A stretch of DNA of 63,884 nt, counting the filler, from Neolecta irregularis DAH-3 (Eukaryota): NCBI GenBank assembly GCA_001929475.1. It is 7 parts of 7 records of this genome, joined end to end, with 100 filler letters (N's around TTAATTAATTAA, not from the genome) between each part and the next. Parts side by side here need not be neighbours in the genome. Positions count along the whole stretch, not along the records: positions 1 to 18,265 come from LXFE01000344.1; positions 18,366 to 19,839 come from LXFE01003252.1; positions 19,940 to 28,538 come from LXFE01000345.1; positions 28,639 to 30,439 come from LXFE01003258.1; positions 30,540 to 61,172 come from LXFE01000346.1; 2 more parts are not named here. One strand, 5' to 3'. Of the stretch, positions 7,794 through 57,400 are shown piece by piece. The position numbers were made by a program, and so were the translations under genes. The notes beneath the pieces were generated by a model. That model did not search any database. It saw only the letters and a list, made by a program, of their open reading frames with translations, and had not been told where the DNA came from. Position 1 is the stretch's first letter; each line of letters begins with the position of its first letter.

Positions 7794-8292
7794 TTATTCT
7801 CCGTCTAATTAAAAATTAATGCTTGAAAATAATAAAGAGATGATACCGCTATCCTCCCAAGCCCGCTTAATACCCCCCGTATATCCATCTAAATGGGTAG
7901 GTTCGGGCATCTTCCACGTCCCATCCAACTTTGCTATGAAATCTGATTTTCCCTTTGCATACTCGATTTTCTAATTGATTAGTATCATCCGTGGTCGTCT
8001 CTAGGTACTAGTTCCCTGTCAAGGAAGAGGAAGCCTTGTAAAGATCGCATCGCACTTGTTGCGCTTACCACGTCGCGGAAAACAACATGGGCCTGGCCTC
8101 GCATTTTGGGTGTTTTCAAAGCGACGATATCGAGTACAGGTCCATGGGAACTAAACAGCATATACAAACATTTCTTTAAATCTGAATCGGTCAATTTTGG
8201 ACTTGAGAAAACGGGGTTGTGCCTGTCTTTGTGATTTTGTCGTTCAAATTGTGGACGTATAATGTTTGATTTGGCGGGATGGCAGAATTCAT
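7794..8292 (-). CDS. MSL1: U2 snRNP B'' protein (single RRM)
   Basis: PPNQTLYVHNLNDKI...LYMLFSSHGPVLDIVALKTPKMRGQAHVVF...KIEYAKGKSD. First intron 8182-8222 is GC-AG. Last exon (DGE*) inferred. Confidence 0.88.
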
Positions 8293-8406
8293 CTGTGTAT
8301 GCACAAGATACTAGTATGCCAGTGTTACGACGGTTGAATGATTGACATGTAGTTAGGGTGCTAATTAAGGGCTAATTAAGCCCAGCCCGTAAGGGACAAC
8401 TCAGAA

Positions 8407-54400: not shown

Positions 54401-57400
54401 AGTTACAAGCTAAAATGAAAGAAGAGGTAGAACCTTTCTTGCGAATAAAATCTTTGACCTAAATAGGAGATTTCTCGTCAGCGTATTCTGGAAGAAAAAC
54501 GAAAGTTCGAGTCAGAAAAAGAAGAACTAGAGGATCTTTTGAGACGAGAACGAGATCTTGCCTTAGATAAGGACGAGATTTTTAAACGAAGTCAACAGCG
54601 AGAAAGTGATCTTTCTGAGCAACTGAAAGAAGCTCTCACTGATATTGATCGATTGGAAGAGCAATGCGACCAGCTGATGGCGGCAAAGCATCGAGTTGAC
54701 AGTCAGATCGAGACATTGAAAAACAACCTAGCCGAAGGTGCACGTTTAATCTCCAGGTTGGAGGAGGAAAAGGCCGACTTAATTTTGGATATCGGAACTC
54801 TTCAAACAGAAACATCGGAGAAAGTCTCTGCAGACACCCGGGATCACGAAAATATTGCACACCTGTATAAATCTCTCCTTATATGAGTGGTTTTGATAGG
54901 TATAGGGAAGAGGAGCTCCACAGTATCAAATCCGAGTCAGAAAAGCTTGGGAAGCAGCTTGAATCTACTAGAGCTCAGTTCGGAGTTGACTTGAGAAATC
55001 ATGAAGCTAGCATTTCGCAGAAAGAAGATACTATTAAACGTCTGAAACAGGAGCTCGAGCAAAAGGACTCGGGATTATACAGCATGGAGGCGCAGCTCAA
55101 ACAGCTAACTAGTACTGCCTCGTCATATGAAGACATGATTCGAAAGAAGGTTCAAATTCTATGCAACTGAAGATTAACGACAGGAATCGGAACTGAAAAT
55201 CCTTCGAATAGACAATGTAGCTCTAAAGCAATCCAACAAAACCCTCACGACCGATAACACAGGCCTAAACGACCGCAATAACTCTGCGCTGCTTGAACTA
55301 CAAGACCTCAAAAATGAACTCAACTCGCTCAGAATCGCCAAGGATCAACTCGAGAAGGAATTTAACACTAGCGAAAAGATCGACCCGACAAAGAACGCGG
55401 AACATGAATCAGAGCTTGAACAAACTAACGCGAAACTAGCCACGTTACAAGCCAACTTTGATCAAGAGCGAAATGAAAGACGCAAAATGATGAAGTCTCG
55501 AACTGCCGAAATCATGCACCTTAAAACCCTTTTAGACCAGTCACAAGCCAAGAAGACTTCTTTACAGATTGAATTTGAGAGCCAGGCTATTATGCTGCAG
55601 AAGACCAAAGCCCGTGCTTCTATGCTGGAGGCTGAAAATGTAAGTCGCGACACCGAGCTTCGCTCATGCCGGCTTCGAATTGAACAAATTGAGAGCGGCG
55701 AGAAAGAAGCAAACTCAGTGCAGGATGACCTTGAACGACAATTGATCGAAGCAACCGCTCAGTCCGCAACGCTCGAGCACAAGCTTCTCGATGCAGAAAG
55801 GGAAAGGACCTCACATATTTCACAGATCGAGACTTTAAAGAATGAACTTGAGAGCTTCATGGCCAAGTCTCGGGATCTTACAGCTGTGCGTCAACGTATT
55901 GAATCAGAAAAGGACATGTTGCGAAAGCGATTGGATACCGAAGAAGAGGCACGTAAATTACTCGAGTCTCAATTGCTTGAGAAAACAAAAGTTATCAATG
56001 AGTTTCCGCGAGTTTCTCAGGCCGAGATACAAAAAACCATCAACGCATTAGAGGTTGAGCGCGACAAATCTATTCGTGAACTCAAGACCCTTCAGAAGAA
56101 CTATGAAGAACTCCGAGCAGAATCTTTGAAGCTTGAATCTCAACAGAAACGGAGAAACTTGGAGATCGAAGACCTTAGCCACGAAGTGAATCAAAAACAA
56201 TCGATCGCGCAGTCCGCAGAACGACGGTTGCATGAACTTCAGGCAGGATTCCTTCTTTGATGTTTCTGATAAATTAGGCTCAGGTATCCAAGTATAAACA
56301 ACAACTTGAAGATGAGAAACATCAGCATTCTCTCTCAAAACTCAATGCTACGTCGCTGAAAGGCGCTCTCGATGCAGCAAATGTTGATCTAGAGGAACGA
56401 TCGGAACTACTCCTTACCTTGACGAACACGATAAATCCTCTCGAGTCAAGTACTGAAATAGATACGGATAAGACCGTTCTCCGAAAGAATACCGAAAAAG
56501 CGATTGATCTTGCTCGGAGATTCGAGGAGGCTCTAGTAGCCAAGAGTGTTGCAGTGGAAGGTCGAGCACGAGCTGAACAACAACTCGTTGAACTTCGATC
56601 GCAGTGGAATGAAGATATCAAAAAGCTCGAAACGAGAAATGATAATACGAAAAAAGCTTTTTTAGACGAACTTGCAACTGTCGACTCGGGCCGAGGCTCG
56701 CCAAGTACGAAGGGCTCATCCGCTAATTTTGTCAGGGGCCATACTTTGCAAAACTCGAAACCGACCAATCGTATAATTCATGAATTTCAGCATCGAATTG
56801 ATGATCAAACACGTACGAGAGGGGTGTCAGAAGATGCAGCCTATCAGTCGCGCAAGAAAATACAAGATTTGGAACGTCTTGTTGAAGATTTGCAGGTTCA
56901 GTTTAAAATGTCCGAGGTACAAAGACAACGACTTGAAAGGGCTCAGGATGTCGAGACAGCAGCGCAAGATTCGAGTCTTGTTCGCAGTCTGCAGAGGGAT
57001 AATGCTCGTTTGCATGAGATCTTGAATGAAAACGCCGATCATTTATCGGCGCTCGAATCTTCCCAGCTGGAAGGAATTAGCTCCTTCCGGGATCTCCAAT
57101 CAAGGTCGTACGAGGAAGCTGAAACAGCCTTCAATAGCCTTGCCGATCAACGCCGAATTCTTATAAAAGCGCAAAAAGCCACGGTTGCCGAATTAAACAA
57201 GACCCGCCGTGAACTCGACTCTCTAAACCATGCGAAATCGAGATTGGAGAAACAGCTTGTGGAAGCAAATAGCCAATTGCAAGGTGAGGCGGTTGACCGG
57301 GAGGACGAAGCCGCAGAGCGTAGTAAGATGCTTGCAGAACTGACAAACTCAAAGGTACGGCTTGAAGGCGAAATTTCAAAGGTCGGTGAACTGTCGGAAA

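Follow-up and report, generated by a model that had tools for sequence, protein, structure and literature searches.

Introns that begin with GC and end with AG (GC-AG introns) are a long-known minor class among the U2-type (major-spliceosome) introns of animals, plants, and fungi (PMC1557818, PMC7072748). They make up 0.37-0.87% of the introns of five model species (PMC1557818); for fungi, the mean is 1.009% (PMC7072748, Table 1). The known rule is that the rest of their 5' splice site lies nearer to U1 complementarity than that of GT introns (PMC1557818). Here, we describe seven such introns in a 63,884-nucleotide (nt) stretch of the genome of the ascomycete fungus Neolecta irregularis DAH-3 (assembly GCA_001929475.1; the whole stretch is hereafter called the window). 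They interrupt the genes for a U2B''/U1A-type RRM protein, RAD7/rhp7, YVC1, eIF2-alpha, and myosin II, and they are very probably genuine U2-type GC-AG introns of this organism.

The Neolecta introns share the GC and AG ends, an ordinary branch site, and a U1-compensated donor with the U2-type GC-AG introns described elsewhere (PMC1557818, PMC7072748). They differ in that their share in the window is 6.4%, against the 0.37-0.87% and 1.009% cited above, and in that they are only 35-50 nt long. Their donors are also far from GCAAGT in absolute terms (one of the seven), unlike those of other U2-type GC-AG introns, because the baseline donor of this genome is weak. In Ganoderma lingzhi, the GC-AG share rose from 1.26 to 1.85% after manual correction (PMC11590231). 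The likeness to this species is that automatic gene sets under-call GC-AG introns, as the public Neolecta models do at four of four introns; the differences are that G. lingzhi is a basidiomycete with a share below 2%, and that the local share in Neolecta is about three times higher, on 110 introns only. The GA-AG introns of Oikopleura dioica and Eurytemora affinis (PMC7072748) offer another parallel, an alternative donor at several percent with a conserved exonic AG flank; however, those are GA donors in animals, and the Neolecta window contains no convincing GA, GG, or other donors. U12-type GC-AG introns have the same termini, but their defining GCATCC motif (PMC1557818) is absent from all seven.

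Among the papers listed by literature searches, none was found to mention GC-AG introns of Neolecta or of any other member of the Taphrinomycotina; supplementary files of the genome paper lay outside these searches. The word 'intron' does not occur in the main text of the genome paper (PMC5309816), nor does 'GC-AG' in PMC8476143. What the present analysis adds to a class long known is further instances, together with public gene models that avoid them and are damaged.

Seven GC-AG introns and their junctions

Each of the seven stretches opens with GC and closes with AG at exactly the coordinates given in the first-pass annotation of this DNA; they measure 41, 50, 35, 37, 37, 35, and 35 nt in the order listed.

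8182-8222, minus strand: GC-AG intron of the U2B''/U1A-type RRM gene, 41 nt, donor GCACAA, TTGAC branch-like site, phase 1
15205-15254, plus strand: GC-AG intron of RAD7/rhp7, 50 nt, donor GCAAGT, CTGAC branch site, phase 1
15255-15286, plus strand: micro-exon of RAD7/rhp7, 32 nt, between two GC-AG introns, missing from public model P0001
15287-15321, plus strand: GC-AG intron of RAD7/rhp7, 35 nt, donor GCAACT, CTGAT branch site, phase 0
21264-21300, minus strand: GC-AG intron of YVC1, 37 nt, donor GCGATT, CTAAA branch-like site, phase 1
23388-23424, minus strand: GC-AG intron of eIF2-alpha, 37 nt, donor GCAAAA, CTGAT branch site, phase 1
52698-52732, plus strand: GC-AG intron in the motor domain of myosin II, 35 nt, donor GCAAGG, TTGAC branch site, phase 0
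56243-56277, plus strand: GC-AG intron in the coiled-coil tail of myosin II, 35 nt, donor GCAGGA, CTGAT branch site, phase 0

Five genes harbour these introns, and all of the three gene-rich contigs are represented (3 of 34, 2 of 18, and 2 of 53 introns per contig). These are conserved genes, eIF2-alpha and U2B'' among them, in keeping with the first-pass annotation, which had remarked on GC donors even in essential genes. Its statement that an exonic G, mostly as AG, precedes the introns also holds: position -1 is G in all seven cases and position -2 is A in five. The flanking frames are joined upon removal of each stretch. A YTGAY branch-like site lies 7-13 nt before the AG in six of the seven, and YVC1 has CTAAA instead. 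Across the window as a whole, a YTRAY branch site is seen a few bases before the AG. None of the seven carries the U12-type ATCC at positions +3 to +6. Their lengths fall within the sharp peak of 32-50 nt observed for introns in the window.

The junctions were examined by searching the flanking exons separately against homologues and checking that the residue numbering of the homologue ran on without a gap. Six of the seven proved to be residue-exact and gap-free, namely those in U2B'', RAD7 (both introns), YVC1, eIF2-alpha, and the myosin head. The U2B'' junction falls at residues 21 / 22 / 23 of human U2B'' (5mqf_X), and the same continuity is observed in 6f4g_B and 3jb9_k. For eIF2-alpha, in the numbering of 3jap_j, the upstream exon reaches residue 80, the split codon corresponds to residue 81, and the downstream exon continues from residue 82. 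The motif GY[IV]DLS, present in 120 of the 120 eIF2-alpha homologues fetched, is restored by the GC junction only. The YVC1 junction runs through residues 367 / 368 / 369-370 of yeast YVC1 (6whg_A), again gap-free. In the myosin head, residues 6-43 of the 44-residue upstream exon correspond to positions 203-240 of the Pfam Myosin_head profile, and the first residue of the downstream exon corresponds to position 242. The numbering is also contiguous in 3jbh_A (330/331) and 7kog_B (338/339), both of which were found in both searches of the PDB.

The RAD7 exon matches 'DNA repair protein rhp7 [Neolecta irregularis DAH-3]', and our spliced model is identical to the public protein P0001 except where the intron models differ. 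Removal of the intron at 15205-15254 joins an exon ending in IRG to the 32-nt exon, which encodes the conserved PNSALTxFL core. Together, the three exons encode the N-terminal motif [VI]xGP[NS]SAL[TS]xFL-xxx-GI, the micro-exon supplying its core. Of the 151 Rad7 representatives fetched, 31 carry this motif with identical FL-xxx-GI spacing.

The seventh junction lies in the myosin tail, a coiled coil, where homology is therefore of little use. This junction was assessed from the hydrophobicity of the heptad a and d positions. Removal of the GC intron leaves a single heptad register, 0, in 17 successive 28-residue windows that span the junction. With the GT intron discussed below, the register changes at the junction from 0 to 2, and the score dips there.

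Donor signals and the share of GC-AG introns

The GT donors of the window are weak. A occupies position +3 in 81 of 103, T or C predominates at +4, and G is found at -1 in only 55 of 103; the commonest hexamer, GTATGT, accounts for 10 of 102. We scored each donor by its matches to the U1-complementary consensus at positions -3 to -1 and +3 to +6 (seven positions). The GC donors match at 4, 6, 4, 4, 4, 4, and 5 positions, whereas the GT donors match at 2.98 on average and 75 of the 103 have at most three matches (Mann-Whitney p=2.8e-4). Two positions are enriched in the GC donors: -1G (7 of 7 versus 55 of the 103 GT introns; p=0.016 in a one-sided Fisher test) and +4A (5 of 7 versus 21 of 103; p=0.008). 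No enrichment was detected between GC and GT donors at -2A (p=0.22), +3A, +5G, or +6T.

The GC donors are thus compensated relative to the GT donors of the same genome, and the usual rules of GC-AG introns operate on a weak baseline. The first-pass annotation had described most of the donors as non-consensus and concluded that fidelity at +2 is relaxed. GCAAGT indeed occurs in only one of the seven, but GT donors are weak here too, and measured against them the GC donors are the better matched to U1. Its proposal that donor choice leans on the exonic side is borne out by -1G in all seven cases and fails in that intronic +4A is enriched as well and -2A is not. In sum, its picture of real introns, a raised share in the window, and an exonic G stands; that of uncompensated donors and a relaxed +2 position does not.

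Introns were counted with a self-trained gene finder that scores codon usage, applies position weight matrices to the donor, branch, and acceptor sites, and includes a length distribution, and the resulting census was patched by hand from the homology and annotation comparisons. It contains 110 introns (103 GT and 7 GC), an approximate count that lies within the 100-130 given in the first-pass annotation. These introns are very short and uniform (32-50 nt, median 38, over the whole window). When the length prior was made flat, 147 introns were chosen, of which 87 measured at most 50 nt and the remaining 60 were evenly spread over 52-396 nt; the tight peak persists and is therefore no product of the length prior. 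Compared with 18 annotated introns in three genes, the unaided gene finder placed 11 exactly, misplaced one acceptor, and read through two introns, 16090-16134 (plus strand, 45 nt) and 20841-20873 (minus strand, 33 nt). Both are GT-AG introns with lengths that are multiples of three and no in-frame stop, and the latter coincides with an 11-residue gap relative to yeast YVC1. Introns of this kind lead to undercounts when introns are counted by frame.

As a decoy control, the gene finder was allowed one alternative donor dinucleotide at a cost of 4 bits. GC was used six times, with a gain of 33.5 bits over GT only, whereas GA, GG, AT, CT, and TT were used one to four times each, with gains of about 2-8 bits. 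Eight of these ten uses fell on the GC loci described here and had the same acceptors, which indicates that these loci lack a good GT intron. A scan based on signals only was not discriminating at a score of at least 0 (32 GC candidates versus 29-78 per decoy dinucleotide), and the claimed introns were four of its top five GC candidates. Among the decoy dinucleotides listed, no convincing further non-canonical donor emerged in the window.

Only two decoy uses lay away from the GC loci. One is a CT donor (38718-38756, minus strand), which was rejected since it directly adjoins the intron before it, so that the two look like a single longer intron that has been mis-split. The gene concerned (34555-42553, minus strand) is large, with about 2,500 residues, 10 predicted GT-AG introns, and Armadillo-like repeats, Laminin_G_3, PH_BEACH, and BEACH domains; its intron at 38757-38796 may reach position 38718, which would make it 79 nt long. 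The other is a GA..AG 'intron' (45067-45106, minus strand), placed at the 3' end of a gene with a weak score (45089-46022); it may reflect either a genuine non-canonical donor or a poor gene model. A further GC-AG candidate proposed by the gene finder (48692-48730, minus strand) was dropped; an in-frame GT donor 6 nt downstream (48692-48724) is equally good, and the region is unconserved.

The seven GC-AG introns correspond to 6.4% of the 110 introns of this approximate census (exact 95% confidence interval, 2.6-12.7%). The share of about 5% estimated in the first-pass annotation, above the usual 1% or so, is thereby upheld, at several times the fungal mean in this window. It is quite possible, if short of an even chance, that the introns are real but that the 6% reflects chance sampling in a single window and the genome as a whole has an ordinary 1-2%. 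There are only seven events, with the confidence interval reaching down to 2.6%; the window was singled out beforehand as notable, and the denominator is probably undercounted. Relative to the 1.85% of G. lingzhi (PMC11590231), the excess is modest, the probability of at least seven being 4.5e-3 at n=110 and 0.011 at n=130. Against a fluke, the same probability is 1.4e-4 at the fungal mean of 1.009%, and the seven come from five genes and from three different contigs, which suggests a property of the whole genome.

The window itself is composed of seven contigs placed end to end (1-18265, 18366-19839, 19940-28538, 28639-30439, 30540-61172, 61273-62700, and 62801-63884). Its twelve N runs form six spacers, each consisting of N44 + TTAATTAATTAA + N44 and containing stops in six frames. 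Since the spacers join separate contigs, gene order across them is meaningless.

18266-18365: spacer
19840-19939: spacer
28539-28638: spacer
30440-30539: spacer
61173-61272: spacer
62701-62800: spacer

The source genome is a 14.5-Mb draft assembly (N50 16 kb, 44% GC, 199-fold coverage, 5,546 genes) obtained from field-collected fruiting bodies (PMC5309816); the same paper states that fruiting-body RNA was sequenced as well. An Rfam scan of the whole window gave no family matches. Long open frames occur on both strands and in several frames at 60628-61224 and 62091-62752, at locally high G+C content (0.58-0.65 at 60300-61099 and 0.74 at 62300-62699). Among these frames, only that at 60450-61220 (minus strand) has a Pfam match (PHD finger).

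GT-AG alternatives and the public gene models

Frame-compatible GT-AG alternatives are present at five of the seven introns (the RAD7 pair, YVC1, eIF2-alpha, and the myosin tail), and they remove or replace conserved residues. The first-pass annotation held that only GC donors could restore the reading frame; this is correct for U2B'' and the myosin head, neither of which has a usable GT alternative, and too strong for the other five. At U2B'', the best frame-compatible GT alternative scores -12.4 and alters the length.

15228-15321, plus strand: rival GT-AG intron of RAD7, 94 nt, present in the public annotation (threading of P0001)
21284-21323, minus strand: rival GT-AG intron of YVC1, 40 nt, present in the public annotation and chosen by the gene finder of the present analysis
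23366-23408, minus strand: rival GT-AG intron of eIF2-alpha, 43 nt, present in the public annotation, model score -9.0
56186-56277, plus strand: rival GT-AG intron of the myosin tail, 92 nt, donor GTGAAT, removes 19 residues

That the cell uses these nearby GT-AG alternatives at some or all of the five introns is very unlikely. The public models P0001 and P0272 do adopt them, and in YVC1 the GT alternative outscores the GC intron (-7.5 versus -13.8). However, the alternatives delete the invariant GYIDLS of eIF2-alpha and the N-terminal motif of Rad7. In YVC1, the alternative leaves the protein one residue shorter and puts K/D-rich residues opposite FIGIMLV of the yeast protein, in place of the stretch that otherwise aligns there. 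In the myosin tail, it breaks the heptad register; the GC intron at 56243-56277 was still selected there under the flat length prior. Two of the alternatives, of 92 and 94 nt, would also exceed all 110 curated introns. The 94-nt intron of RAD7 skips the micro-exon and is the sole annotated intron longer than 45 nt among the 18 examined.

These 18 annotated introns were recovered by threading two public proteins, P0001 and P0272, onto the DNA, which covered three genes (RAD7, eIF2-alpha, and YVC1), and all are GT-AG. At all four GC-AG introns that could be checked in this way, the public models bypass the GC donor and lose conserved sequence. P0272 (941 amino acids; 20376-23656, minus strand) is named 'Eukaryotic translation initiation factor 2 subunit alpha'. 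An annotated 'intron' within it (22629-22666) holds the stop codon of eIF2-alpha, and the protein is therefore a chimera in which eIF2-alpha and YVC1 are fused. A search for a public eIF2-alpha model among proteins of 105-336 residues gave a best match that was 64% identical and no Neolecta protein. Judged by conservation of the encoded proteins, the GT-AG-only public models appear to be wrong at the GC-AG sites, the damage to eIF2-alpha, YVC1, and RAD7 arising because GC donors were disallowed.

Several points weigh against our conclusion that the seven are genuine GC-AG introns and against the figures attached to it. The public annotation, which is said to be supported by RNAseq at the gene level (PMC5309816), resorts to GT alternatives for four of the seven. 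The gene finder, unaided, picked neither the U2B'' nor the YVC1 GC intron, and the donor, acceptor, and branch site of the latter reach only the 12th, 0th, and 8th percentiles, respectively, among GT introns in a model trained on GT introns. YVC1 has the weakest signals of the seven and the least certain junction among the six established by homology; it and the myosin-tail junction are the two least certain overall. No more than 31 of 151 representatives showed the Rad7 motif; the other 120 were not inspected singly, and many of the alignments begin well downstream of the N-terminus. The upstream exon of the myosin head matches its homologues weakly (E 0.012 to 0.97), and the tail junction was derived from a simple hydrophobic heptad score instead of homology. 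The enrichment p-values span six positions with no correction for multiple testing. Finally, the denominator of 110 comes from a self-trained, hand-patched gene finder that missed two in-frame introns in the three checkable genes.

It is hardly credible, even for a fragmented draft (N50 16 kb) from field-collected fruiting bodies, that the C at each +2 position is an error of the assembly, or a single allele at a T/C polymorphic site, in introns that function as GT-AG. This would require seven independent T-to-C changes exactly at +2 despite 199-fold coverage (PMC5309816), and random errors or polymorphisms would strike average GT donors, whereas the seven are enriched for -1G, +4A, and U1 complementarity (p=2.8e-4), which points to long-standing, selected GC donors.

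Recognition of very short introns and its consequences

From the colinearity of the encoded proteins we infer that the seven introns are spliced out, probably by the major spliceosome. Intron-rich genomes tend toward degenerate 5' splice sites, and some protists, such as haptophytes and dinoflagellates, are rich in GC donors. In Neolecta, pairing with the U1 small nuclear RNA would read the 5' splice site, and a C at +2 would cost one base pair. The lost pair could be offset by extra pairing at -1, which is always G, and at +4, which is mostly A. The YTGAY branch site, 7-13 nt from the 3' AG, probably aids recognition as well. In introns of about 38 nt, the 5' site, the branch site, and the 3' site are close to one another and may be recognized as one unit, so that weak donors would be tolerated generally.

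We tentatively propose that the whole genome of N. irregularis has a GC-AG share of about 5-6%, several times that of any reported intron-rich fungus, and that introns of about 38 nt are recognized as single units with a weak 5' site, a C at +2 being tolerated when -1G and +4A are present.

The N. irregularis proteome serves fungal phylogenomics and studies of multicellularity, and some of its models are damaged: eIF2-alpha lacks an invariant motif and is fused to another protein, a membrane-channel segment of YVC1 is altered, and RAD7/rhp7 lacks its N-terminal motif. If the high share is true genome-wide, a few hundred public gene models would be damaged in the same way. If about 6% holds across the genome, Neolecta would also provide a case for the loosening of +2 recognition in very short introns with weak donors, in which, within this window, the positions that pay for the C at +2 are -1G and +4A.

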